Part shown: one piece after another, positions 15,405 to 31,896 of the stretch
How the letters are laid out: each line of letters starts with the position of its first letter
Numbering within the stretch: position 1 is the stretch's first letter
Notes under the pieces: model-generated
What the model saw: only the letters and a program-made list of their open reading frames with translations
Databases searched by the model: none
What the model was told of the DNA's origin: nothing
Position numbers and translations under genes: made by a program
Virus record (IMG/VR): IMGVR_UViG_3300028388_004484
Location: 414 to 64,413 of that record
Reading direction: 5' to 3' (one strand)
DNA length: 64,000 nt
From: a virus
Taxonomy: Duplodnaviria > Caudoviricetes

Positions 15405-16538
15405 ATGAAATGGACCGCTTCACTGCCGCTCGCGGCGATTTCCGTAAACTTTCCTTCCCTTACCGTAAAGGATGCCGTCGTTCTGGATTGGTTTACTTCA
15501 TTTGTCCATACCGGACGAATGGAATACAAAGATTCCGGCGGCCGTCTTTTTTATTGGGTGTCCTACGAAGAAATCATTACAGAAATTCCGATGCTTCGCT
15601 GGACAACTACGGATCCGGTTTACCGGGCTTTTCGCCGCATGGTTAAGGCCGGAATTTTTGATGCCCATCCGGACAATGCTAAGGAGAACAAAGCCTTTTA
15701 TGCTTTCGGGCCTGGATACGAAAAAATCAGGGCTTTCGATCCTATCGAATTTTTTAACGCTTTCGGCCGGAAAGGGACCCCCGGTCAAAATCAGGAAGAA
15801 CGCGAAGGGACCCCCGGTCAAAATAACGGCCGACCCCCGGTTAAAAAACCGGGTAATAATAATATAAGTAATATTAGTACAAATATAGTCCAAAACGATT
15901 TTGGACATCAATCTTTTGACCTTCCCGGAATCGAAGAAGAAAAAGAAGAAGGCGGCCCGGATCTTTTCGAAGGGGTCGATATATCCTTCGAAAGCTTTTG
16001 GAACGCCTACGGACGAAAGGAATCGAAGAAAAGGGCGAAAAGATCATGGAAGAACCTTCCTAAATATAAAAAAAAGTTGGCGATCGAAAAAGTCGCGCCT
16101 TACGACGAATTCCTTAAAGCGAATCCGTGGCGGGACAAGATGCTTCCTACGACCTGGATTTCCGGGGAACGTTGGAACGATGACTTTTCGACAAAAGCTT
16201 CCGGTTCTATTTCCGTTGAAGATTTAATCGACGTAGAAGCCGATGCGGCCCTTGTAAGGAGCTTTAAGGCCTTCCGGGGTATAGTCGCCGATAAGGCACC
16301 GGAAGTACTTTCCTGCGCCGGGCAATTAACGCTCAGTCAATATATCGAAGTCGCTACCGGTCGCGCCTTCCCGGGATATAAAAAGAAAATGACTACGGCG
16401 GGCTTAAAGTCGAAGATCCTTTCCGCGGTCGAAGCCATGGGAACTATCGACGCATATAAGGTCCGGCGCCCGGACTTTAAGATGATCGACTACCTAAAAG
16501 ACTACATTCTTTTTTCTGGAAAAAAGATTTACAAGTAA
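15405..16538 (+). CDS. replication initiator protein
   Basis: N-terminal wHTH-like region, central iteron-encoded linker, FESFWNAYGRKESKKRA...PTTWISGERWND domain typical of phage initiators. Confidence 0.8.
   Translation: MKWTASLPLAAISVNFPSLTVKDAVVLDWFTSFVHTGRMEYKDSGGRLFYWVSYEEIITEIPMLRWTTTDPVYRAFRRMVKAGIFDAHPDNAKENKAFYAFGPGYEKIRAFDPIEFFNAFGRKGTPGQNQEEREGTPGQNNGRPPVKKPGNNNISNISTNIVQNDFGHQSFDLPGIEEEKEEGGPDLFEGVDISFESFWNAYGRKESKKRAKRSWKNLPKYKKKLAIEKVAPYDEFLKANPWRDKMLPTTWISGERWNDDFSTKASGSISVEDLIDVEADAALVRSFKAFRGIVADKAPEVLSCAGQLTLSQYIEVATGRAFPGYKKKMTTAGLKSKILSAVEAMGTIDAYKVRRPDFKMIDYLKDYILFSGKKIYK
15774..15900 (+). repeat. replication origin: three iterons GACCCCCGGTYAAAA plus AT-rich element
   Basis: iterons at 15774, 15807 and 15832 followed by ATAAGTAATATTAGTACAAATATAG inside the initiator gene (lambda O-like layout). 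Confidence 0.75.
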
Positions 16539-16555
16539 TTCAAAAGCAAGTTGAA

Positions 16556-18634
16556 ATGACAGACTTTAAAAAATTCGCATTACGCTATTTTGATTCCGGC
16601 CACCGGGTTATTCCTATGAAATTTTCCCCTTCGGGTGATAAGGTGCCTATGGCGGCCTGGGGCAAATACCGGGAACGGCAAAGCCGGGAAGATGTCATCC
16701 GCGAATTCTCAAAAAACGGGATCGACGGCATAATGATAATTACCGGGGTTAATGGCCTTGAAGTAATAGACGTAGACCAAAAGTATGCTTTGCATCCGGG
16801 TCTTATGCTTAAGATGTTAGCGCACAATTCCGCTTTCGGTGGGATCGACGTTCAGCGTCTGGTCACGCAGACGACGAAAAACGGCGGATGGCATATTATC
16901 TACCGGACCGCGGCGCCGGGTCCTAATCAGGAACTTGCGCGCCGGCCGGCGACGTATAATGAACTCGCTAAGGAGAACGAAAAAGTTCGCGCCTTTAATG
17001 AAAGACTAAAGGCGGAACAATTTATGGGCAGGCGGACGCAGGAAAGCCTACAAAACGAGTTCAAAAGCCCGGCGGACCTTCCGAAGGTATTAATTGAAAC
17101 TCGCGGCCGTGGTGGATTGCTGGTCGTTCATCCTACACCTGGTTACGAAATAGATTCCGGCGACCTTTGCGATATTCCGAATATCGGCGAAGCGGACCGA
17201 ACCGCGCTTTTCCAGGCGGCCCGTGCCTTAAATCAGCAGGTTTCTAAAAGGGAACTTTCCATAATTGATACGGAAATAAACCGGAACTTCAAGCCGATGC
17301 CGGGTACGGAAGAAGGAACGCCGTGGAACGATTACAACATTAACGGCGATTGGAAGGATCTTTTAGAACGAAACGGATGGACCTTCAACCACAAGCGGAA
17401 GGATTCATCTACCGGCAATGATTATTACTACTTTACGCGACCCGGGAAGAAAACAGGGGTAAGTCTAGGATGGAACGACACCCGGAAGTTTTTTTGGGTG
17501 CATACTTCTTCGACCTTCCTTGAAAAGGACCGCGGGTATACCCTTACGGCGATGCGTGCGGCCCTTGAATTTCACGGCAATTACCGGGAAGCGTGCCGGG
17601 CGCTTAGAAAGGAAGGCTTCGGTAGCGATGACTACGTAAAGGTAACGGCCCAAACGAAAACAGATGTATTAGAATTGGGCCGCTGGCGGATAACGGACCC
17701 CCGGCCGGAAAACGTTTGGTTGTTGAAGATAATGGACCGCGGCGAATGGAAGCCGATAGGCGGCGAAGGGCAAATTATGGTTATCGACGGATACGAAAAG
17801 TCCGGCAAAAGTACTTTCGTCGGCGCCGTTTCCGGTTCTTCTTCAAACCCTGGGAAAGAAGTTTTGGGACTTAAAGCGACGGAAGCAATGCGCGGCCGGG
17901 CTGTTATAGACATAGATACGGAAATGGATGACCCTTCTTACGATTCTTCGCGGCGGATCCGGATGCACACGGCCGGTTTCACTAAGGAGATGCCCGAAAA
18001 TTACTATTCTTACAATCTTAGGGAAATGTTGACCGCGGCGGAACGGTGGGAACGTATTATGCAAATTGTCGAAGCCGTGCCGAACCCCGGCGTTCTTATT
18101 TTAGATGGCGGGATGGACCTTGTAAACAACCAAAACGACTTGGAAGAAAATCAACTTGTTTCGCGGCGGATCATGAAGATAGCTTCTAAATATAAGATGC
18201 TAGTGGTAGTTATTATCCATTTTTCGAAGTCGGGAACCGGCTTCGGCCACCTTGCCGGCTTCCTTAACCGGAAGCTGAATGTTCAGTTTACGATTTCAAA
18301 AGATGACGACAGGGAAGTAATGACGGTAACGAATCCGCGGATACGTGGTCAGCGTTATTTAGAAGCCTTTGATATTAAATGGTGCGACGGAAGGCCGCAG
18401 CGGGTCGATCATTTAATCAAAGAAGAAGAAGATTTTTGGACCGCTTCCGGCGTCGTCGATCCGGATAAGAACGGAAACGGCGCCCAGGAAGCCACACAGG
18501 GCGAATGGAAGCAGTTTTCCGTGGTCCCTTCCCTTCCCATTAACGGGAACGGAAAAGCGCATCACAACGGAAATAGCGTTCAGATTTCCAGGGACCGGGC
18601 GCCCGGATCCGACGAAATGATCGAATTCGATTAA
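16556..18634 (+). CDS. bifunctional primase-polymerase / P-loop helicase
   Basis: VIDVD, TTKNGGWHIIY, IETRGRGG..VVHPT prim-pol motifs; GYEKSGKS Walker A; DIDTEM; LILDG. Confidence 0.85.
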   Translation: MTDFKKFALRYFDSGHRVIPMKFSPSGDKVPMAAWGKYRERQSREDVIREFSKNGIDGIMIITGVNGLEVIDVDQKYALHPGLMLKMLAHNSAFGGIDVQRLVTQTTKNGGWHIIYRTAAPGPNQELARRPATYNELAKENEKVRAFNERLKAEQFMGRRTQESLQNEFKSPADLPKVLIETRGRGGLLVVHPTPGYEIDSGDLCDIPNIGEADRTALFQAARALNQQVSKRELSIIDTEINRNFKPMPGTEEGTPWNDYNINGDWKDLLERNGWTFNHKRKDSSTGNDYYYFTRPGKKTGVSLGWNDTRKFFWVHTSSTFLEKDRGYTLTAMRAALEFHGNYREACRALRKEGFGSDDYVKVTAQTKTDVLELGRWRITDPRPENVWLLKIMDRGEWKPIGGEGQIMVIDGYEKSGKSTFVGAVSGSSSNPGKEVLGLKATEAMRGRAVIDIDTEMDDPSYDSSRRIRMHTAGFTKEMPENYYSYNLREMLTAAERWERIMQIVEAVPNPGVLILDGGMDLVNNQNDLEENQLVSRRIMKIASKYKMLVVVIIHFSKSGTGFGHLAGFLNRKLNVQFTISKDDDREVMTVTNPRIRGQRYLEAFDIKWCDGRPQRVDHLIKEEEDFWTASGVVDPDKNGNGAQEATQGEWKQFSVVPSLPINGNGKAHHNGNSVQISRDRAPGSDEMIEFD

Positions 18635-18706
18635 AATATTTTATCCGCTTTATTTGATAATGCGGATAATATTCTTTATCATTGTGTCACATTAAAACCA
18701 ATAACG

Positions 18707-19120
18707 ATGAGCCTAGTAAACAGCATTAGAATTATCGGTAACCTGGGCAAAGATCCGGAAGTCCGAAACCTTCAAAACGGGGCGAAAGTCGCGAAATTTT
18801 CCGTCGCCACAACGGAACGCTTTACGAACGCGGCCGGCGAAAAGATCACAAACACCGACTGGCATACCGTCGTAGTTTGGCGGAAGCTGGCCGAAATCGC
18901 AGAAGCGCACCTTCGTAAGGGAATGAAAGTCGTAATAGAAGGTAAGATGAATTACCCCACATGGCAAGACAAAGACGGGAACACCCGCTACGGCGCCGAA
19001 ATTGTCGGCGACCGTTTCGAAATTATTAACTGGAACGATGCCGGCGGAAATGCTTCGGCCCCGGATCCGGAGCCGGCGGAAAAGGAAAACGTGGCCGCTG
19101 ACGACGATCTGCCCTTTTAA
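18707..19120 (+). CDS. ssb: single-stranded DNA-binding protein
   Basis: IIGNLGKDPEVR, TDWHTVVVW, C-terminal DDLPF. Confidence 0.95.
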   Translation: MSLVNSIRIIGNLGKDPEVRNLQNGAKVAKFSVATTERFTNAAGEKITNTDWHTVVVWRKLAEIAEAHLRKGMKVVIEGKMNYPTWQDKDGNTRYGAEIVGDRFEIINWNDAGGNASAPDPEPAEKENVAADDDLPF

Positions 19121-19128
19121 AGTAAAGA

Positions 19129-19395
19129 GTGATGCGGTTAATCGATGAAAATACGGCAAATGATCTTTTGGCGAAGGTCGAAAGTATAGAGTGTAAACTG
19201 ACTTTTGTTAAAGAGGGCGGCGCCCTGGAAATTCCAATGACGGAAGAAGAGGCAATAAGGGCTTTTGGGTTTAAAGAAAGGACCTTTAAGCAGTGGCGAA
19301 GGCAGGGCGCCTTCCCTTCTTACAAAATAGGTAAAAGCCACATTTTTGTTTTTGTTTCTGAAATCAATGAATGGATAAGAAGGCACAAAATATAA
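19129..19395 (+). CDS. excisionase-like HTH protein
   Basis: MTEEEA...KERTFKQWRRQGAFPSYKIG..F..SEINEWI. Confidence 0.7.
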   Translation: MMRLIDENTANDLLAKVESIECKLTFVKEGGALEIPMTEEEAIRAFGFKERTFKQWRRQGAFPSYKIGKSHIFVFVSEINEWIRRHKI

Positions 19396-19871
19396 GCTAT
19401 CCGGGGGAAGGGCGAAACCCGAACGGCCCTTCCTTTCCGGAGCGGCTTGAAAAGTCGCATGAAGCCGTTAATGCGACGCTGTTCCTACTTAGCGACCGGG
19501 GACATAGAATTACCCTTCCGCCGACACACCTTCGCCCCAGCCGTTCACAATGGAAGGAATACACGGATAATGGGGACCTTGAAATAAGCTTCCGGATCGA
19601 AGTAAAGCACCGAACGGACCTTTCCTTTTCTTCCGCGGAAACATTTCCGTATGAAACGGTAATTGTCAACGAAGTGCGAAAAGTTGAAAAATATAAGGTG
19701 GCGCCGATATGGTATTTTATCTGGAACTCCGACCTTTCTTTTTATGCCTTTATCGACGCAAAAAAGACGCGCAAGCACTGGACGAAAACGACCCGGTATG
19801 ACCACAAAAGCGAAAAGGAATGCGTATTTTATGAATGTCCCAAAAAATATGTACGGTTTATAAAACGCTAA
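19371..19871 (+). CDS. putative PD-(D/E)XK nuclease
   Basis: D.GDL...IEVK motif. Confidence 0.5.
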   Translation: MDKKAQNISYPGEGRNPNGPSFPERLEKSHEAVNATLFLLSDRGHRITLPPTHLRPSRSQWKEYTDNGDLEISFRIEVKHRTDLSFSSAETFPYETVIVNEVRKVEKYKVAPIWYFIWNSDLSFYAFIDAKKTRKHWTKTTRYDHKSEKECVFYECPKKYVRFIKR

Positions 19872-19926
19872 GAAATCCTGCTGTTTGAATTAAGTTTCTT
19901 AAAGCCCCTGGAAAGCCGTGGGAACC

Positions 19927-20017
19927 GTCGGAAAGGGAAATGGCCCTGGTGGAAGTTTATAAGTCCTGTTGCGATAGCCCCCACCTTCCGCTGCCGGTTC
20001 GAATCCGGCTTCCGTCA
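19927..20017 (+). ncRNA. tRNA-like element with an expanded anticodon loop
   Basis: perfect T-arm GCCGG-TTCGAAT-CCGGC; acceptor GTCGGAA/TTCCGTC (6 of 7); AGGG/CCCT and GGTGG/CCACC stems. Confidence 0.4.
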
Positions 20018-20026
20018 CAAATTAAA

Positions 20027-20290
20027 ATGAAAAATATTAATCAATCAAACCCCAGCGATAACATCAAAGGGGCAAAAATTTTCCGCATGGCTACCTATAA
20101 AATAAAAATGACCCTGCCAACACAGTGGGTTATCACAACAGAAGCTTCATCTGAAGAAGAAGCAATTCAAAAAGCATTGAAAGCGGATCCGCCATCACAA
20201 CTTGCTTATCAAGATGACGATGAATGGCAGCCTGACATCATGGAATGGCCGTTTGTTGCTGGAATGACTATTGATGCATATGAAGATTGA
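20027..20290 (+). CDS. hypothetical protein (start probably 20027 or 20087)
   Basis: ITTEASSEEEAIQKA is a common small phage protein motif. Confidence 0.55.
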   Translation: MKNINQSNPSDNIKGAKIFRMATYKIKMTLPTQWVITTEASSEEEAIQKALKADPPSQLAYQDDDEWQPDIMEWPFVAGMTIDAYED

Positions 20291-20317
20291 TTTAAGCAAT
20301 TTAAAAGAAAAATGATT

Positions 20318-20565
20318 ATGATAACAAAAAAAAAGCAGCAAAATTCTGGGCTGATTATTTTGATGCAGATAAGCAAGAAGGATTGCACTGTCACCACATG
20401 ACAATTGATTGCATGGTGCTTTTTGCACAAGAGCAAGTAAAAAACTGCTCTATACCCGTTGTTGTAGGGCGAAGCGAATTAAAGGCTTTTGCTGAATACC
20501 TTGATGAAATACATGGTGGAGAATTTGCAGTAAATGAAATTGATAACTTTATGAAAAGCCTTTGA
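20318..20565 (+). CDS. hypothetical protein spanning the first cassette junction; frameshifted at an A9 run
   Basis: ATG at 20318 needs a -1 shift at 20326-20334 to join the frame ending ...IPVVVGRSELK...MKSL*. Confidence 0.4.
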
Positions 20566-20629
20566 TTGCCTACAACGGCAAGGCATACCCGCAGGCTGGG
20601 ATTTTAACTTAGATATTTAAAAAGATAGA

Positions 20630-20908
20630 ATGATGCAGCTTAATTTATTCACTGAACTATCCAACGAATCATTAAACCCCAGATTGAGGGTATGTAATGT
20701 TGGCGGTAGTGTTTCTTATCGTCAGCGTTTCGGATTAAATAACCCACCTAAAGGAACAATCCTGAGATTGAAATACATGCCAGGGCTTAAATGGTATCTT
20801 CACTGGGAAGATTGTACCGATGGAGAAGATATAGTTCAAGGGTGGTTCGGCACATCTAAAAAAGCTAAAAACTATGCGCAGGAAAATGGTTGGTTGGTTC
20901 TGTCTTAA
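20630..20908 (+). CDS. hypothetical protein starting inside an attC-like loop and reading into cassette 2
   Basis: the junction GTTGGCGGTAGT encodes VGGS; the stop overlaps the inverse core. Confidence 0.6.
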   Translation: MMQLNLFTELSNESLNPRLRVCNVGGSVSYRQRFGLNNPPKGTILRLKYMPGLKWYLHWEDCTDGEDIVQGWFGTSKKAKNYAQENGWLVLS

Positions 20909-21038
20909 CATTACCGCCAACGGTTTGGCTATGTGCCGTTGTGAGGTACGAGCAATGGACATATAGCCGTTGTTATGTACTGGCACGGTGAATTACTGAT
21001 AAGGTTGATTAAATGAACGAAACTAATAATTTTTAAAA

Positions 21039-21824
21039 ATGAGCGATGGCAAATATGCTTTTGAAAAAAGCAAGATAATACAAGGTGATTGCCTTGAAAA
21101 GATGAAAATGATACCCGATAAAAGTATAGACTTTATTTGTTGTGACCTGCCCTATGGTATGACTGCTCCTAAATGGGATGAAATAATACCTGCTGATAAA
21201 CTTTGGGAACAATATAATAGGATAATATCTGAAAATGGAACGATAGCTTTATTTGCTTCACAGCCTTTTACAACCAAGCTAATAAGTAGTAATGAGAAGG
21301 ATTACAGATATGTATGGTATTGGGTAAAAAACCAAGCGACAAACTTCTTCCACGCTAAACGAATGCCTACGAGGAAAGTTGAGGAAGTTGTAATATTTAA
21401 AAAGGGCAAATACTACCCACAAATAACCGAAGGACACATACCAACAAACAGTGCGAAGGGGTGTAGTAATGGCAAAGCCTATCACGGAACAAACACGAGA
21501 GATTATGAAGGGGGTAAAACTACAAGATACCCAACAAACTTGCTTGAATTTAAGTGTGTAGATAATTACAGTAGAATACACTCCGCACAAAAACCTGTTG
21601 AATTGATTGAGTACCTTGTAAGGACATATACTGATGAGTTTGATTTGGTACTTGATAATACGAGTGGAAGCGGAACACTTGCAGAAGCCTGTATAAATAC
21701 GAACCGAAACTTTATAATTATTGAGAAAAACCCAATTGACTTTGAAAAAGGCAAAGAAAGGGTGGGAAAGATTTTTAAAAATTATGGGCTTGACCTACAA
21801 CCTTTATTAGATGAACGAATGTAG
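21039..21824 (+). CDS. N6-adenine/N4-cytosine DNA methyltransferase (beta class), cassette 3
   Basis: IIQGDCLE, DLPYG, HSAQKPVELIEYL, VLDNTSGSGT. Confidence 0.9.
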   Translation: MSDGKYAFEKSKIIQGDCLEKMKMIPDKSIDFICCDLPYGMTAPKWDEIIPADKLWEQYNRIISENGTIALFASQPFTTKLISSNEKDYRYVWYWVKNQATNFFHAKRMPTRKVEEVVIFKKGKYYPQITEGHIPTNSAKGCSNGKAYHGTNTRDYEGGKTTRYPTNLLEFKCVDNYSRIHSAQKPVELIEYLVRTYTDEFDLVLDNTSGSGTLAEACINTNRNFIIIEKNPIDFEKGKERVGKIFKNYGLDLQPLLDERM

Positions 21825-21907
21825 TGCTTGTACATAACGGCTAAGCGCATATGCCGTGCGTAGCATGGTCATATACGTAGTGTTGGGCGCATTTCAAATA
21901 TTACAAT

Positions 21908-22147
21908 ATGACAACATTCGAAAGACTTGCAAATAAAATAAGACGCGATGTAGGTATAGAAACTTATGACCTAAAACGAACCTATGCAAGATCAGCTAAA
22001 GCATCAGGCGCACCCGTTTGGATTGGGAAAATAAAGGGGTCTAATCTTGAGGTCGTGAGCGGATATACCGCCACCGAGTTACTAAAGTCTCCAAAGCTAA
22101 AAAAGGTTAGCGGGTGGTCTTTCGGTGAAATAGAGATCGAGCCTTAA
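21908..22147 (+). CDS. hypothetical protein, cassette 4
   Basis: single ORF bounded by cassette inverted repeats. Confidence 0.7.
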   Translation: MTTFERLANKIRRDVGIETYDLKRTYARSAKASGAPVWIGKIKGSNLEVVSGYTATELLKSPKLKKVSGWSFGEIEIEP

Positions 22148-22253
22148 TTGCGCCCAACGGTTTGGCTATACGCCTGTACTTGTATGGCGTATAGGTGTTG
22201 TTGTAGGTATGTAAGCCTACGGAATTAAAAACGAAAACTTTAAAATAGATACA

Positions 22254-22439
22254 ATGGACGAATTATTGAAACAACTTGGATTTGAATACATGACTGGGTC
22301 AATTTGGAAGCATGAGAAAATAGGTATTATCTCAATTTCTGAGAATGATAAACCAATTGATTTAGTGCAAAAGATATATGATAGGGGCTATGAAGAGTGT
22401 CAAATAATAATAAGGTCAAGTCTTGGCATTAAAGGTTAG
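22254..22439 (+). CDS. hypothetical protein, cassette 5
   Basis: single ORF bounded by cassette inverted repeats. Confidence 0.7.
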   Translation: MDELLKQLGFEYMTGSIWKHEKIGIISISENDKPIDLVQKIYDRGYEECQIIIRSSLGIKG

Positions 22440-22505
22440 TAGGCTTATTACCTACAACGGTTTGGTTATGCACAGAAATTTTAACGACTTAAAATTCGAA
22501 AAAAA

Positions 22506-22706
22506 ATGGAGAATGTATTTTTTTATGTTTCGTGGGCGATCCTTCCATTAGCCTGGATCATTTTCACCTTGAAGGGTATCCGGACTTACTTCCGGATGAA
22601 CATGAGACCCCTAAATAAGATAATCGGCGCGGTAATTTACATTGCCCTTTTGGTTTCTTTCGCCTTTTTGGGTAACGCTATCTTCGGCGCCCTAAACATA
22701 CTTTGA
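22506..22706 (+). CDS. small two-TM membrane protein
   Basis: two hydrophobic stretches. Confidence 0.6.
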   Translation: MENVFFYVSWAILPLAWIIFTLKGIRTYFRMNMRPLNKIIGAVIYIALLVSFAFLGNAIFGALNIL

Positions 22707-22823
22707 GATTCATCGTAAGTTTGGTTAAGGTCCGGGCCGCCTTCGCGTTTTTTTTTTCACCCGTCAATGGTTTCTAGGTGTTTTTGGGGTAGTTGGCGGC
22801 CCACCTTTTTTAAAAAAAAATCA

Positions 22824-22937
22824 ATGAAGAATTTAAAGAAAGTGCTAGTACTTATCGCCCTTCTAATAGTCGCGTTCCTGGCCGGTGCTGCGATGCTTAG
22901 CGTGTTCCTTGCCGAAGGAATAAGGGACGCTTTTTAA
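22824..22937 (+). CDS. 37 aa single-TM peptide (not in the ORF track)
   Basis: MKNLKKVLVLIALLIVAFLAGAAMLSVFLAEGIRDAF read directly from the sequence; A-rich leader. Confidence 0.5.
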   Translation: MKNLKKVLVLIALLIVAFLAGAAMLSVFLAEGIRDAF

Positions 22938-23094
22938 GGTTTTTTCATATATTTTGCTTTTGGTTTTTTAACGAATGGTAAAGCGCGGCCCGGTTTCCAA
23001 TTTTGCCGGGTCGCTTTCTTATGCGCTTTATCCGTTTTTTCGTATTTTTATAGTGCTTGTTTTGAACCCTTTTTTTTTACTCAAATCTTCAATT

Positions 23095-23421
23095 ATGAAC
23101 TTTTTAGAATTCGCATCCGCCGTGAACGGCGAAGCCCTTTCCGGCGCTGCTATTAACAACTGGCTGCAAATCGAAGTAGACAACTCCGACAAAACAATTC
23201 CGCCGGCGGAACGGCCGCTTAAGTTTGTAAAGGTAGTATTCGGCCTTAATTCGGAAGTCGGCGAAGTACTTACCGACATGACCGCGGCATCTTTCCGGGT
23301 TGAGGACATTAATTTCGAAAGCCGGCAGGTCGACTTCGAACCCATTCAGGCCCCGGTCGTTATCGACCCCGGGACCGGGGGAACGACCGGCACCGGATCT
23401 TCCGCGGGTGAGGGAAACTAA
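23095..23421 (+). CDS. hypothetical protein (start probably 23095)
   Basis: the upstream part of the listed ORF overlaps a terminator-like hairpin. Confidence 0.55.
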   Translation: MNFLEFASAVNGEALSGAAINNWLQIEVDNSDKTIPPAERPLKFVKVVFGLNSEVGEVLTDMTAASFRVEDINFESRQVDFEPIQAPVVIDPGTGGTTGTGSSAGEGN

Positions 23422-23518
23422 TTCCGTCCGACTGGACGTTTCTGCTTAACCTGATAAGCCAGGGGCTTGCGCCTATAAGATAGCCGGCCCGGCCCCTGGC
23501 CCGTTTTAAAAAAATCCC

Positions 23519-23665
23519 ATGAAAGATATACCCACCTGGGCGATGATTGTCCTAGCTTTTCTTTTTTCGGCCTTATCGGCGATTGCCGCCGTTCTTATTT
23601 CCGACTTTAAAAAACTCCTTTCTTATGTCGAAGAATTCTTTACACCTTCCGATAGGGAAGAATAA
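23519..23665 (+). CDS. 48 aa single-TM peptide (not in the ORF track)
   Basis: MKDIPTWAMIVLAFLFSALSAIAAVLISDFKK... read directly. Confidence 0.45.
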   Translation: MKDIPTWAMIVLAFLFSALSAIAAVLISDFKKLLSYVEEFFTPSDREE

Positions 23666-23921
23666 GAAGCGGATCTTTGTAAGCACGGCCCACCTTCGGC
23701 AAAATAGGAAGATGGAAACCCCTTCCCTTCCGCCGATAATCTGCACGACGGAAAGCGGGCGCCATGAAAATGCTTTCGAAATTATCGCCAGGGATTCCGC
23801 CGGGAAGGAAGTTTTCCGGGTCGTGTACCGGCCATTGGATCCGGTAACGACCCATACGGAAGTATGGATCGAAACCACGGTCGACCTGGAACTAAAAAAG
23901 TCTTATCTTTATGACCATTGA
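23625..23921 (+). CDS. hypothetical protein
   Basis: ORF 23583-23921 with likely ATG at 23625. Confidence 0.55.
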   Translation: MSKNSLHLPIGKNKKRIFVSTAHLRQNRKMETPSLPPIICTTESGRHENAFEIIARDSAGKEVFRVVYRPLDPVTTHTEVWIETTVDLELKKSYLYDH

Positions 23922-24129
23922 AATGCTTTATTCGCTACTGTCATCTAAAGGTATGACCGCCGACATAGAAATCCAGCCGTCGAAAGCGCATGAATATATC
24001 CGGGTGTCAATCCGGAAGGACTTCCGCCGTATATCCGTCCGGATAACGGCCGAAGAATTCCGACAGGCGTTCGAAGGGGCGGGTGTTATTCAAAAGAAAA
24101 TCATTGCCGGCATTGCGGCCCTGGAATAG
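23911..24129 (+). CDS. hypothetical protein
   Basis: ORF overlapping the previous stop. Confidence 0.55.
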   Translation: MTIEMLYSLLSSKGMTADIEIQPSKAHEYIRVSIRKDFRRISVRITAEEFRQAFEGAGVIQKKIIAGIAALE

Positions 24130-24145
24130 CCGTGTGCATTTTGTT

Positions 24146-24360
24146 TTCTTACGATTTTCTTACACGCAAAAGTTTAGTTTTTACTAAACTTCTGTCGCTC
24201 AATAATTTTACTTTCCGGTCCTGTAGTTCAAGGGATAGAACGACCTTTACCTTCTTTTGCTTCTTCCTGCCTTTAAAATGCCGTTTTAAATAAGGCCGGA
24301 TCGCTTTTTTGAAGCGGTAGAAAGCAGCAGGGGCTTGTTCGGTTCTTACCTATTTCTTAC
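24146..24360 (+). other. attP: core resembling a tRNA 5' end, flanked by arm-type repeats
   Basis: GGTCCTGTAGTTCAAGGGATAGAACG (24217-24242) looks like a tRNA acceptor plus D arm; TTCTTAC pairs at 24146/24157 and 24343/24354; adjacent to the integrase. Confidence 0.7.
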
Positions 24361-24379
24361 ATTTGAAAAAAAGCAAGAC

Positions 24380-25597
24380 ATGAAAATTAACTTCCGATGG
24401 AACCGGCGGAAGAAAACCGACGGCCGCGGCCGGGCGCCGGTAGAACTCCGAATTTATATTAATGGCCTGGAAAGGTACGTAAATACCGGGATACTTTTAA
24501 AGGCCGGGCAGTGGAACGGGAAAGTGCAGCGGTCGAAAGATCACCCCGAAGCCGCTGCAATAAACCTTCGTTTGTCTGACCTGGAAAATAGGGCCTTCCG
24601 GTTTTATCATTCCCGCCTTTCCGAAGGGCTTCCCCTTTCGGCCGGATCCGTCAAAGATTTTTTAGAAGGGAACATCCAGCGGCCAGAAGAACTTATATCT
24701 TTTATCGAAGATATGATCCGGATGAACCCGAAGGGCCTTTCCGAAGGAACGCTTAAGCAGCGGCGAACGATGGTCGCTTACCTTCGGGACTTCCGGCGCC
24801 AGATCCCTTTTTCGGAAGTCGATGGATATTTTGTTACGGCCTTTGAAGGGTATCTTCGTAAATTTGAAGATAACTACGGGGCAGGCTCGCGAACCCGGGG
24901 CGCAAAAAAACTTTCGGGCAACTACATTTCTTCCCTTCTTTCGATCCTGAAAATTTATACCGGGGAAGCGATGCGGCAAGGCATAATTCGTGCGGATCCC
25001 TTTATCGGAATTAGGATCCAAAAAACTAAAAGCGAACGTACCTACCTGACGATGGAAGAGATTAAAGCCTTTTCCCGGGTAACAATGCCGGGCCGGCGTG
25101 CCCGCTTCGAAGAAAGCATGGATAAATTTTTATTCTGCGCATATACAGGCCTTCGATATTCGGATTTAATTGACCTGAAAGGGAAACATATTAAAACGTC
25201 GATTGGCGGTCTTAGGCTCGTTAAAAAGCCGTTAAAGACAAAACGAGTTGGAACGACGATTAATCTTCCCTTATATTCTCTTTTTTGGGGACGGCCCGAA
25301 GCGATCGTTAAAAAATGGATGGAAGGGAAGCGGCCTAAAGATTCCCTGGCGCCCGGGCTTGACCTTTCAACTTACAATAATCATTTAAATGAGATTGCTC
25401 AAGCTGCCGGGATCCGGAAGCGGGTAACAAGCCATGCGGCCCGGCATACCTTTGCGATGATCCTATTAAACGATTTCCGCTTCCCTGTCGAATACGTCCG
25501 GCGGCTGATGGGGCATTCTGATATTTCGACAACGGAAGTATACGCAAAACTTACCGATCAAAGCTTAGATAGGCTTATCGATTCAGCTTTTGAATAA
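24380..25597 (+). CDS. int: tyrosine integrase (Bacteroidota type, arm-binding N-terminus)
   Basis: GRAPVELRIYING N-terminus; YTGLRYSD, SHAARHTFA, MGHSDISTTEVYA catalytic motifs. Confidence 0.93.
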   Translation: MKINFRWNRRKKTDGRGRAPVELRIYINGLERYVNTGILLKAGQWNGKVQRSKDHPEAAAINLRLSDLENRAFRFYHSRLSEGLPLSAGSVKDFLEGNIQRPEELISFIEDMIRMNPKGLSEGTLKQRRTMVAYLRDFRRQIPFSEVDGYFVTAFEGYLRKFEDNYGAGSRTRGAKKLSGNYISSLLSILKIYTGEAMRQGIIRADPFIGIRIQKTKSERTYLTMEEIKAFSRVTMPGRRARFEESMDKFLFCAYTGLRYSDLIDLKGKHIKTSIGGLRLVKKPLKTKRVGTTINLPLYSLFWGRPEAIVKKWMEGKRPKDSLAPGLDLSTYNNHLNEIAQAAGIRKRVTSHAARHTFAMILLNDFRFPVEYVRRLMGHSDISTTEVYAKLTDQSLDRLIDSAFE

Positions 25598-25682
25598 TCC
25601 GCTTCATTTTTTGAAGCGGATTATTCAACTTTTAGGATTCATTTCGTCTAATATAGTGGATGGAATAAATTGTATCTTTTTT

Positions 25683-25720
25683 GCCCCGGTGGTTTTGCAC
25701 GTCGCCGGGGCTTTTTCTTT
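25683..25720 (+). terminator. intrinsic terminator
   Basis: GCCCCGG/CCGGGGC stem plus T tail. Confidence 0.65.
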
Positions 25721-25805
25721 GCCCTTCCTTACGCTTTTTTTGTTTTGGCGATCTTGGCGTTAATGGCGTGCGCCAAAAAGGCCAAGAACTTTTTTTCATC
25801 TTTTT

Positions 25806-25860
25806 TGTCAAAATATTTAGACAACTGAAAAGAAGGCATTAACTTAGCATCATTGAAAAA
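25806..25860 (+). promoter_or_regulatory. class A early promoter/operator, first of 11 copies
   Basis: palindrome TGTCAAAA-NN-TTTGACA-like plus TAACTTAG -7-like box plus CATCAT. Confidence 0.75.
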
Positions 25861-25877
25861 CAAAAAAGCGACTACGT

Positions 25878-26648
25878 ATGAACCGGATCGAAAAAACAAT
25901 GGGGCGCCTTCGGGCACTCCCCGCTTCCGAAAAAAGGAAGCTTCTTCGCGGCCTTCGGGATTCTTACCTTGAACTTGGCGCCGAAAAAGGCCTTAAGGGT
26001 TTTACCTACGACGGGGAACCGATCGAAGGTTTCCTTCCGCGGCAATATGAGTATATGAAAATTTCGGATGTAACCGGCGCCCGGATCCGGCACTTTCTCT
26101 GTGTCGACGGCCTTACGTTTCATCCGTCGGAGTTGTGGCCGAAGATGTCGAATTCCGAAATAGCTTCCGCGGCCCGGGAAGCCGAAGAACGGGAACGGAA
26201 AGCCGAAGGGTATATTTCAGAATTAAAACGGCGCGGGTGGATCGACGCCGTTCGGGATTGTGTGTATACGGCCCGGGCGCTAGGCTTTGAAATTACACCG
26301 TGGGAATATACCGGCTGGGCAGTCCTTCCGGAATGGCGGTTTATTAACCGGGAAAACGGCGCGAACCGGCTTTTGTCGCAGTACTGCCATGGGATATACC
26401 CGGAAGTTATCCGCTTCGATCATTCCAGGGACTGGCAGATAATTGACCACGCCCCTATTTCCCGCCTTTTCCCCGCCCAGGATCGCTACCTTTATCGCCT
26501 GGAAAATATCAAAACCGGCACCGTTTCTGGTAAAAAAGATTTCTTCCGGCCGGAAGAAGTAAAAGAGTTAAACAAACGAATGGCGGAAATCGAAGCCCCT
26601 TACCGTTATTACCCATATTCGGAATATTCGGAAAAAAATAAAAAATAA
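25878..26648 (+). CDS. hypothetical early protein
   Basis: ORF behind a class A promoter. Confidence 0.65.
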   Translation: MNRIEKTMGRLRALPASEKRKLLRGLRDSYLELGAEKGLKGFTYDGEPIEGFLPRQYEYMKISDVTGARIRHFLCVDGLTFHPSELWPKMSNSEIASAAREAEERERKAEGYISELKRRGWIDAVRDCVYTARALGFEITPWEYTGWAVLPEWRFINRENGANRLLSQYCHGIYPEVIRFDHSRDWQIIDHAPISRLFPAQDRYLYRLENIKTGTVSGKKDFFRPEEVKELNKRMAEIEAPYRYYPYSEYSEKNKK

Positions 26649-26718
26649 ATGTCAAAAAGCTTTGACGGTCCAAGCTAAAGCATTAACTTAGCATCATTGA
26701 AAACAAAAACAAGTTAAA

Positions 26719-31044: not shown

Positions 31045-31896
31045 ATGCGAACTTCTGAATCTATTAAGAACCTTTCAAAGGCCCTGGTAGCCTTTCATTC
31101 TTCCGTCGGGCCTATACCCCGGACCGCTGTAAATCCTTACCACAATAGCCGATACGCGCCGCTGGGCGTCATCCTGGCCGCCATCCGGGAACCGCTTTCA
31201 AAAAGCGGCCTTTCGGTAACCCAATGGCCGGAAGGCAAGAACGCCCTTACTACTCGCTTGCTGCATGAATCAGGCGAATGGATGGAAGCGACCTACGAAA
31301 TGACGCCGAAAAAACAAGACCCGCAGGGCGAAGGATCCGCCATTACCTATATGCGGCGCTACGCTTTGGGTGGCATCCTTTCGCTTGAAATTGAAGATGA
31401 TGACGACGGCAACACGGCCACCGCCTTAAGTCAAAAAAAACCGGCAGCGCGGGCACGGCAAAACAATGGAAAAACCGGAAATTCCGATAAGTCCAAAAAT
31501 TCCGGTAAGTCGAAAAAGCCGGACCGCTTTACAAAAGTCATGGCGGAACGGAACCGGGAAAAGCTTTCCGCGCAGGTCAAAAAGGATGGCGCCGATAAGG
31601 TCATCGAAGCGATAAAAGAAACGTACCCGAAAGGGATCGAACCGACGGCGGCAGCTTTTATCCGGGCATTAACCGAAATCAAAAAGCCGAAAGAAAATAC
31701 GCCGAAGCGAAAGGGTGCCTTTACGCTTCCTTTGTTACAGGAGAACCGGGAAAGTATTATCAAAATGTTATCTGAAAGTCGCCTGGACGAAGTTCTTCTT
31801 AAGCTTGGTGGCGGTTACGAAGATGGCGTTACCCCGGAAGCTTCCGCGGCCCTTATCGACATTTCTAAAAAGATAGCCGAAAAGGCGAATGCCTAA
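31045..31896 (+). CDS. ERF-family single-strand annealing protein
   Basis: NPYHNSRYAPL, LLHESGEW, DPQGEGSAITYMRRYAL, DDDGN. Confidence 0.9.
   Translation: MRTSESIKNLSKALVAFHSSVGPIPRTAVNPYHNSRYAPLGVILAAIREPLSKSGLSVTQWPEGKNALTTRLLHESGEWMEATYEMTPKKQDPQGEGSAITYMRRYALGGILSLEIEDDDDGNTATALSQKKPAARARQNNGKTGNSDKSKNSGKSKKPDRFTKVMAERNREKLSAQVKKDGADKVIEAIKETYPKGIEPTAAAFIRALTEIKKPKENTPKRKGAFTLPLLQENRESIIKMLSESRLDEVLLKLGGGYEDGVTPEASAALIDISKKIAEKANA

Follow-up and report, generated by a model that had tools for sequence, protein, structure and literature searches.

A phage array of cassettes and attC-like hairpins in which some reading frames cross the cassette cores at in-frame valine codons

The window analyzed here is a stretch of 64,000 nucleotides (nt), positions 414-64413 of the 64,413-bp phage record IMGVR_UViG_3300028388_004484, and all coordinates given without another locus name are those of the window. 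The record has direct terminal repeats and is rated complete, and + is the coding strand of nearly all long open reading frames (ORFs) in the window. Five successive units, A to E, occupy 20461-22458, each framed by inverted repeats of its own in the pattern GTTx...x'AAC, and they are separated by hairpins resembling the attC sites of integrons. Two genes, ORF-A (cassette 1) and ORF-B (cassette 2), are read across the GTT core at the start of a unit, and comparisons with other phages, metagenome contigs and a bacterial genome show that units, hairpins and, mainly in cassette 1, protein halves have changed partners at such cores. The GC content of the 20-23 kb region is 0.36-0.40 versus 0.43-0.55 in the remaining window, and the array lies in this low-GC accessory part of the complete genome of a probably temperate phage. 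The features of the array are as follows.

20305-20565, + strand: ORF-A, an 86-codon open frame composed of the N-terminal part N1, a linker and a C-terminal module (C-module) of 34 amino acids (aa); crosses GTT 20461
20312-20334, + strand: probable true start of ORF-A (ATG 20312/20318), judged from homologues; -1 frame versus the remainder
20434-20478, + strand: conserved 45-nt linker, composed of a 3' half-site (..CTCTATACCCGTT), the GTT core and GGGCGAAGCGAA; encodes ..QVKNCSIPVVVGRSE
20461-20576, + strand: unit A (GTTGTAGG...CCTACAAC), start-less 34-aa C-module with stop codon
20577-20698, - strand: hairpin H1, a long site of 122 nt, with ATG 20630 and the first 23 codons of ORF-B in the loop
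20630-20908, + strand: ORF-B, 92 aa; starts in the H1 loop, with GTT 20699 read as Val24
20699-20921, + strand: unit B (GTTGGCGGTA...TACCGCCAAC), with inverted repeats; also present in contig L122 of a bacterial metagenome-assembled genome (MAG)
20922-20971, - strand: hairpin H2, 50 nt (AAC/GGTTTGGCTATGTG...ATAGCCGTT/GTT); fold and model match
20972-21838, + strand: unit C (GTTATGTAC...GTACATAAC), carrying the gene for an N6/N4 DNA methyltransferase (21039-21824)
21839-21881, - strand: hairpin H3, 43 nt; weak fold, model match
21882-22158, + strand: unit D (GTTGGGCGCA...TGCGCCCAAC), with an ORF of 79 aa at 21908-22147, no family
22159-22199, - strand: hairpin H4, 41 nt; fold and repeat only
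22200-22458, + strand: unit E (GTTGTAGGTA...TACCTACAAC), with an ORF of 61 aa at 22254-22439, no family
22459-22475, + strand: H5, a lone 5' half-site (GGTTTGGTTATGCACAG) with which the array ends on the right; an ORF at 22506-22706 comes next

The inverted repeats of units A to E are 8, 10, 9, 10 and 10 nt long, and start and end were paired in all five units. When the window was shuffled 200 times by mononucleotides, a tiled chain of five never came up, the best shuffled chain being one of four, which occurred once. The four complete hairpin sites and the half-site all fall within 1.9 kb. The arms of H1 (20584-20604 and 20674-20694) are 21 nt long and 81% complementary; a first-pass annotation, made from the sequence alone, had placed them at 20583-20607 and 20672-20695. 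The z-scores of the DNA folds were -2.0 for H1, -2.5 for H2, -0.2 for H3 and -2.6 for H4. One bulged base was present in the folds of H2 and H3 and none in that of H4, and the long sites have symmetric 1x1 mismatches. The spacer of the sites is asymmetric, its two sides measuring about 5-7 nt (GGTTT..) and 0-5 nt, and the sequence AAC/GGTTTGG(C/T)TAT is common to three sites (family D1). The short hairpins (41-50 nt) are non-coding, whereas the long ones carry a start codon and an N-terminal coding part in the loop. The cores at 20972, 21882 and 22200 are crossed by no ORF of 60 aa or more, and the genes behind them begin 26-67 nt past the GTT; the cassettes of units C, D and E, three of the five, have self-contained genes, and two of the five window genes begin inside or upstream of a site. 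ORF-A, ORF-B and the ORFs of units D and E matched no family in PHROGs, Pfam or NCBIfam.

A 3' partner for H5 was not found in the whole window, where there were 31 loose matches versus 25 expected. The segment to the right of H5 (22459-22706) looks like the loop of a long site, with ATTTTAAC.., an A-rich stretch and an ATG, and no 3' arm follows it. The ORF in this segment encodes 66 aa, is hydrophobic by eye and starts at the position that the start of ORF-B has in H1. Some other ways of finding sites were of little use: a degenerate site pattern gave 8 matches across the window versus 8.0 expected and was uninformative, the 15-mer CAACGGTTTGGYTAT gave at least 118 single matches among viral contigs, which by a rough estimate is about chance, and was not used, an ungapped stem finder was dropped as unspecific (23 matches in the window versus 7-18 in shuffles), and a one-mismatch listing of inverted repeats was dropped for its high noise.

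ORF-A crosses the core at 20461 with the junction ..CSIPV/VVGRSE.. and ORF-B crosses the core at 20699 with ..RVCN/VGGS.., and GTT is an in-frame valine codon in both, which confirms what the first-pass annotation had stated of the two junctions. It had also placed the start codons of both cassettes upstream of the GTT. This holds for both, with the qualification that ORF-A probably has its true start in a frame other than that of the remainder. The first in-frame starts of ORF-A are TTG 20383 and ATG 20398. Its homologues open with MITKK[D/N]AAKFW, and the window matches this opening from ATG 20318 if the A9 run at 20326-20334 gains one base. Judging from this comparison, the frameshift could be caused by a homopolymer error in assembly or sequencing, by transcriptional slippage or by gene decay.

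The relatives of ORF-A, of which 6 were found by a word-based search and 28 by exhaustive phmmer, mostly align with it over query residues 7-53 only or 45-86 only. The C-terminal part, VVG(R/Q)SEQLKAFAEYLDE.HGGEDFAVNEID.FLKSL, starts at the valine of GTT 20461. Eighteen carriers of this C-module were compared, namely the window ORF, 14 database proteins and the ORFs of loci L164, L165 and L166 of other phages; the L164 ORF is the same as P0038, leaving 17 distinct sequences. The C-parts were alike in 142 of the 153 pairs (BLASTP, E <=0.01) and the N-parts in only 19, 13 of which span merely a linker of 12-20 residues. Even by single linkage, at least 10 unrelated N-parts are joined to the C-module at that valine. 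On the other side, the N-part of the window protein (AAKFWA.YF..HMTIDCMVKFA) was found with other C-parts, including cysteine-rich ones (P0019, P0020), and the linker peptide (..EQVKNCSIP.) is common to otherwise unrelated N-parts. At the DNA level, unit A is present in L164, L165 and L166 as a segment of 122-125 nt with homology from exactly GTT to exactly AAC, and the 45 nt on either side are unrelated. The copy in L166 has a compensatory change in its paired ends (GTTGTATG/CATACAAC). Between the window and L164, the ratio of nonsynonymous to synonymous change (pN/pS) in unit A was 0.40, and the two indels are both of whole codons. Unit A has no start codon and would therefore be translated only as a fusion.

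The first-pass annotation had drawn attention to the heptamer GCGAAGC, which we take to be an unusually stable mini-hairpin, as a bulge in the first core. The heptamer is indeed present at 20469-20475; when 20380-20480 is folded, its bases stay unpaired and form no bulge in a stem. The window has 18 copies of it on the + strand and 5 on the opposite one, and the copy of unit A in L166 reads GCAAAGC, so that it was rejected as a functional element. Further searches around cassette 1 gave little. P0022 was not found in the metagenome contigs, N1 gave no alignment with viral contigs, and tblastn of P0024 against phage records gave weak unrelated matches only. The ORF-A protein had no match in 401 genomes of the order to which the MAG belongs, a search without a positive control and hence uninformative. 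The structure model of P0024, with a mean predicted local distance difference test score (pLDDT) of 59.4, is too weak for more than a hint that its junction residues 55-59 are a linker.

For cassette 2 it had been proposed that the ORF at 20630 starts in the loop of a long attC-like hairpin, and this was borne out, ATG 20630 lying in the loop of H1. No in-frame start is present in unit B from Val24 to codon 47, and the translation of ORF-B must therefore begin in the hairpin. Val24 is invariant among the 17 homologues of ORF-B, and the sequence is strongly conserved from Val24 on. The N-part behaves differently from that of cassette 1: 12 of the 17 homologues have the same one (MTQLNLF..NPRLRVC), in 3 the part encoded by the loop is related and the residues encoded by the arm differ, and 2 (P0016 and P0017) have unrelated N-parts and diverge exactly at Val24. 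P0016 is located on a 23-Mb NCBI contig, far above the size of a bacterial replicon, and contamination or transfer to a eukaryote assembly is possible. The N-part being mostly kept with the unit, exchange at this GTT is not free, and ORF-B keeps both halves probably because the gene needs both. The pN/pS was 0.31 in codons 1-23 and 0.30 in the body of the gene, as estimated from one pair (window versus L122) with small counts. The predicted fold of ORF-B had a mean pLDDT of 63.7 and no match in PDB (best E 0.27), and no relatives of ORF-B were confirmed in the metagenome or viral contigs. The check suggested in the first-pass annotation, whether the N- and C-terminal halves assort independently at the valine, came out positive for cassette 1. 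Its interpretation is partly supported: protein halves have been recombined at the valine of cassette 1 and only rarely at that of cassette 2.

The reading phase was examined at 17 GTT cores, 5 of the window, 3 of L164, 5 of L165 and 4 of L166, with ORFs of at least 60 aa counted as crossing. At nine of the cores there is a crossing ORF, and its start lies upstream, in most cases within a hairpin loop. In eight of the nine crossings GTT is read as a valine codon, the exception being L166 6266 (phase 2); an ORF of 47 aa at L165 1796, in phase 1, was excluded as too short. The bias in phase has P = 0.001 if the crossings are taken as independent and P = 0.018 if they are collapsed into families of homologues (five of six). 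The possibility raised earlier, that the GTT frame might turn out random across arrays, is thus not what was observed. The crossing ORFs start in a hairpin loop, as ORF-B does, or in a segment ending in a half-site, as ORF-A does, and not in a complete preceding gene. The suggestion that a short site supplies the N-terminus did not survive; instead, long hairpin loops of 120-530 nt carry the N-terminal coding parts, and one of them holds a whole gene. This last case is at L165 1270-1797, where two complementary 12-nt arms, GGTATATGAGCC directly after an AAC core and GGCTTATATACC directly before a GTT core, are separated by 526 nt. The arms GGTATATGAGCC / GGCTTATATACC enclose a complete ORF of 129 aa, a "hairpin loop" of the size of a cassette. 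Other arms in L165 (GCGGTAT / TACCGC) enclose the N-part of a gene that runs on into the unit with the C-module. A nearly empty unit, GTTGTAGCA and TGCTACAAC with 11 nt between them, is also present in this locus (1796-1825); with a site on each side, it folds into a small hairpin without mismatches.

Both kinds of border have served as breakpoints. Besides the ends of unit A in L164-L166, the evidence comes from metagenome contigs of four runs in one estuary study. Unit C (20970-21839) was found there at about 92% identity with foreign sequence on both sides, and the hairpins H2 (20919-20978, 2 differences) and H4 (22156-22204, 1 difference) each occurred alone in another context. The linker (20434-20478) was found with 2 differences and different flanks, followed by an in-frame cysteine-rich continuation, and in one contig 20424-20464 is joined to another body just past GTTG. 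The breakpoints fall on the AAC and GTT triplets within 0-2 nt, and exchange has thus occurred at AAC/ as well as at /GTT. Judged from these sequence contexts, the units and the hairpins behave as separate modules. A simpler rule, by which every hairpin goes with the unit to its right and no ORF crosses a true junction, was rejected as the sole rule, as breakpoints are seen at both cores. One contig of 1587 nt (run X2) contains window 22438-22459, the last 21 nt of unit E and the next G, in identical form, and unit C lies about 434 nt further along it, an order of parts unlike that of the window. As for exchangeable C-terminal modules, unit A fits the description given in the first-pass annotation; the genes of units C, D and E are self-contained, and cassette 2 mostly keeps its N-part. 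The comparisons document exchange over evolutionary time; the combinatorial diversification mechanism that had been proposed, a regulated device built for the purpose, is something we could only infer from them.

One of the 17 homologues of ORF-B is encoded on contig L122 of a Thermonemataceae MAG. L122 has unit B with the same long hairpin upstream of it, and differs from the window to the left of CAAC/GG and to the right of CAAC/GGTTT. The next hairpin on L122 matches the sites of another locus of this MAG, G001:C148, with 75% identity (E 2.9e-18). This element is as follows.

L161 3804-5489 and 5910-16140 (G001:C148): a recombinase gene, then at least 8 cassettes

In the C148 array, seven GTTx...x'AAC units are tiled and an eighth site is present; the sites measure about 118 nt. 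A tyrosine recombinase of 561 aa is encoded directly before the array, and every ORF is on the recombinase strand. Among the proteins encoded by the cassettes are a PIN protein, a P-type ATPase and one resembling RibD_C/DHFR. The recombinase has an N-terminal extension of about 280 aa. It passes the NCBIfam model NF040815 "tyrosine recombinase/integron integrase" (228 bits, cut-off 220) and fails the IntI model TIGR02249 (214 bits, cut-off 265), with which it aligns over positions 8-179 and 239-315 only, skipping 180-238.

A covariance model, R1, was built from nine sites of the MAG only, a homologue of H1 being among them. In the window it matched H1 (20568-20707, - strand, 69.2 bits, E 1.4e-13, a match to be read with the H1 homologue in the model in mind), H2 (20913-20980, - strand, 28.9 bits, E 2e-4) and H3 (21830-21890, - strand, 23.7 bits, E 0.004). 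Among other phages, it matched five sites in L165 and one each in L164 and L166, and in the MAG there were 24 matches at E <=0.01, nine of them by construction. All 10 phage matches are opposite to the strand of the phage genes, and ORF-B is antisense to the site polarity in the MAG contig too. By these matches and their strand, the phage sites are of the MAG kind, with every phage gene antisense to the bacterial polarity, and on sequence grounds the phage hairpins belong to the same site family as those of the integron-like array. The canonical layout of a cassette, a top-strand ORF followed by its own attC, is not found in the phages, where each hairpin is upstream of a gene. By the MAG polarity, the GTT taken here as the junction is the inverse core and not the canonical crossover point.

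These observations could be explained by an integron-type array without a recombinase of its own, in which halves were exchanged at both cores by a recombinase presumably supplied by the host, and we would give this explanation an even chance. At the long sites, translation would start in the loop, cross the 3' arm and the GTT, read as valine, and go on in the GTT...AAC unit, and the near-constant phase of the cores keeps fusions of N- and C-parts in frame. The exchanges would take place during infection, by a host recombinase of the type seen in the MAG, which would act on folded single strands of either strand; a weak choice of strand would then lead to cutting at either core. We infer such cutting because the sites are near-symmetric, with 1x1 mismatches and not bulges, and because the recombinase aligns with the IntI model only outside positions 180-238. 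The canonical rule, cutting only at AA/C-GG (window + strand), fits ORF-B with its hairpin but not unit A, unit C, H2 or H4. In a bolder and more tentative form, one that we regard as rather doubtful, the array would be a natural device for shuffling gene parts, in which sites are cut at either core, loops and cassettes are both mobile modules and the GTT phase is fixed. Cutting at either core would perhaps come from a XerA-like recombinase without the IntI region said to read strand polarity, and this would amount to an integron that handles pieces smaller than a gene, with which phages diversify small proteins.

Several observations weigh against the explanation by host-supplied exchange at both cores. 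A recombinase of XerA/IntI type was found neither in the window, which has a phage-type integrase only, nor in three other phage records (G402-G404), and the enzyme and the strand logic are both putative. H3 folds no better than its shuffles, and H4 was unreported by R1 at E values up to 1. The metagenome contigs record the presence of a context only, and the junction in most of the chimeric proteins was placed at the protein level only. In cassette 2, the N-part and the hairpin stay with the unit in 12 of the 17 homologues (with 3 more related) and in both DNA contexts, and residues 1-28 of ORF-B are predicted to be disordered (pLDDT <50). The start of ORF-A is out of frame in the window, perhaps as a result of decay. 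Moreover, the 45-nt linker is conserved in foreign contexts and would allow exchange by short homology.

The main rival makes use of this last point. In ordinary phage mosaicism, the half-sites and the linker would be patches of homology at which DNA is joined by relaxed homologous recombination, for example by Erf-type annealing, and the hairpins would be relics on which no site-specific recombinase acts. An Erf-like annealing protein is encoded at 31045-31896, the linker peptide is common to unrelated N-parts, and the lack of a suitable recombinase in the four phage records would be as expected. However, the breakpoints fall on the AAC and GTT triplets and are not spread over patches of homology, and the private inverted repeats together with the compensatory change in L166 imply selection for the pairing of unit ends. 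The sites are also homologous to those of an array adjoining a tyrosine recombinase. The sharp breakpoints and the compensatory change argue against short-homology recombination, and we consider mosaicism on the whole unlikely, though serious enough to be kept in mind.

Less probable still is that a canonical integron fragment has entered the phage, with the crossing ORFs being accidents of read-through or gene calling and the chimeras having no function. Such a view is in line with the self-contained genes in three of the five window cassettes, with the frameshift at the start of ORF-A and the disorder predicted for the N-terminus of ORF-B, and accidental fusions across attC have been recorded (PMC3375312; PMC8876359), as far as these sources bear on the point. 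It does not account well for units A and B, which are conserved from their first codon without a start of their own, for the pN/pS of 0.3-0.4 and whole-codon indels, for phase 0 in eight of nine crossings, or for a C-module kept in 17 distinct sequences with different partners. A switch like a shufflon, in which units would be inverted in place and one N-part fused in turn to alternative C-segments, might be suggested by the inverted repeats flanking every unit and by the reverse strand of unit A, which looked open in the same phase by eye only, but is very improbable, as no invertase or Rci-type gene was found in the family scans of the window, no inversion isomers were seen in the metagenome contigs, where the sole joint was a skip inside unit C, and the units after ORF-A and ORF-B carry genes of their own and not alternative tails.

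Clusters of attC sites without an integrase (CALINs) have been described in phages, including a Polaribacter phage with a host of the Bacteroidota (Qi et al. 2023, PMC9892861). In the parts of that report relevant here, the cargo includes N6_N4 DNA methyltransferases, and inverted GTTRRRY motifs are present at the array borders (PMC9892861). The window array is like these in its tandem hairpin sites and cassettes, the absence of an integron integrase and an orphan N6_N4 methyltransferase as cargo. As in CALINs, R1 places at least two tandem sites of the same polarity within a few kb (H1-H3, - strand), AAC...GTT triplets are present, and the cassette start is complementary to its own end in all five units; the IntI gene that would stand beside a complete integron is absent from the window. 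Compared with the published account as far as it goes, what differs here is that the genes are antisense to the site polarity, that loops have start codons and N-terminal parts, and that units and hairpins assort separately at both cores. So-called reverse integrons, as in Treponema denticola, have an integrase gene co-oriented with the cassettes (10.1101/2020.05.09.085589). To the extent that this source describes them, the C148 element is similar, with a recombinase followed by same-strand cassettes each ending in a site of about 118 nt, and differs in that its recombinase has 561 aa and passes the XerA model but not that of IntI, and in having 1x1 mismatches, not bulges.

A fusion of cassettes, GCUF1-OXA-28, was reported by Hocquet et al. 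(2012, PMC3375312), and a review mentions that about 20% of cassettes are without initiation signals, along with ORF-11 of attI1 and fused cassettes (PMC8876359). Phage CALINs and occasional cassette fusions are therefore already published. In the fusions, as here, translation from outside a cassette crosses the recombination site and gives a fusion protein. The published cases, in what these sources give, are single accidents or translational coupling at attI1, whereas the crossings here are recurrent (9 of 17 cores in four phage arrays) and consistent in phase (8 of 9), with at least 10 different partners for a single C-module. The literature that was searched held no loops with N-terminal coding parts, constant core phase or separate assortment of loops and units, although the supplementary tables of Qi et al. 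might list similar arrays.

The outcome at cassette 1 also resembles that of other systems in which parts of proteins are joined. In shufflons and invertible tail-fibre segments (Rci of R64, Gin of Mu, Cin of P1), in-frame sites join a 5' part to alternative 3' parts, and such systems work by inversion within one locus, on double-stranded sites and with a recombinase of their own. In the present case parts are exchanged between genomes and the sites are of hairpin type; neither a recombinase gene of its own nor a set of alternative 3' segments is found in the locus. In exon shuffling, a constant phase at the borders lets any pair of modules join in frame. The constant phase of the module borders is a likeness to this, but the joining here would be by DNA recombination at hairpin cores, with no splicing. 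Integrons are usually seen as movers of whole genes, and fusions across their sites as accidents. If the cores are in frame and both flanks are mobile, the same machinery would also recombine protein halves and would be a prokaryotic counterpart of exon shuffling. Accessory regions of phages would moreover be tied to integron-like elements of their hosts in the Bacteroidota, where little has been described.

Outside the array, the following genes of the window were named by PHROGs, which also named an endolysin.

16556-18634: primase-polymerase
18707-19120: single-stranded DNA-binding protein (SSB)
19129-19395: excisionase-like protein
21039-21824: DNA methyltransferase (the gene of unit C)
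24335-25597: integrase, with the domains Arm-DNA-bind_5, Phage_int_SAM_5 and Phage_integrase
31045-31896: Erf-type annealing protein

The window integrase scored 43 bits on the integron-integrase model TIGR02249 and 71 bits on NF040815. A megablast search of 16500-26700 against phages and a search for relatives of the primase among viral contigs gave no match, nor did an Rfam scan of 19700-22800. The stretch at 19985-20020 resembles the 3' end of a tRNA gene, with the T-loop motif GGTTCGAATCC, and was not called by ARAGORN or Rfam; this unconfirmed stretch might be the attachment core of the phage, the integrase gene being 4.3 kb away. A tRNA-Glu (TTC) gene is present in the phage at 33208-33280.

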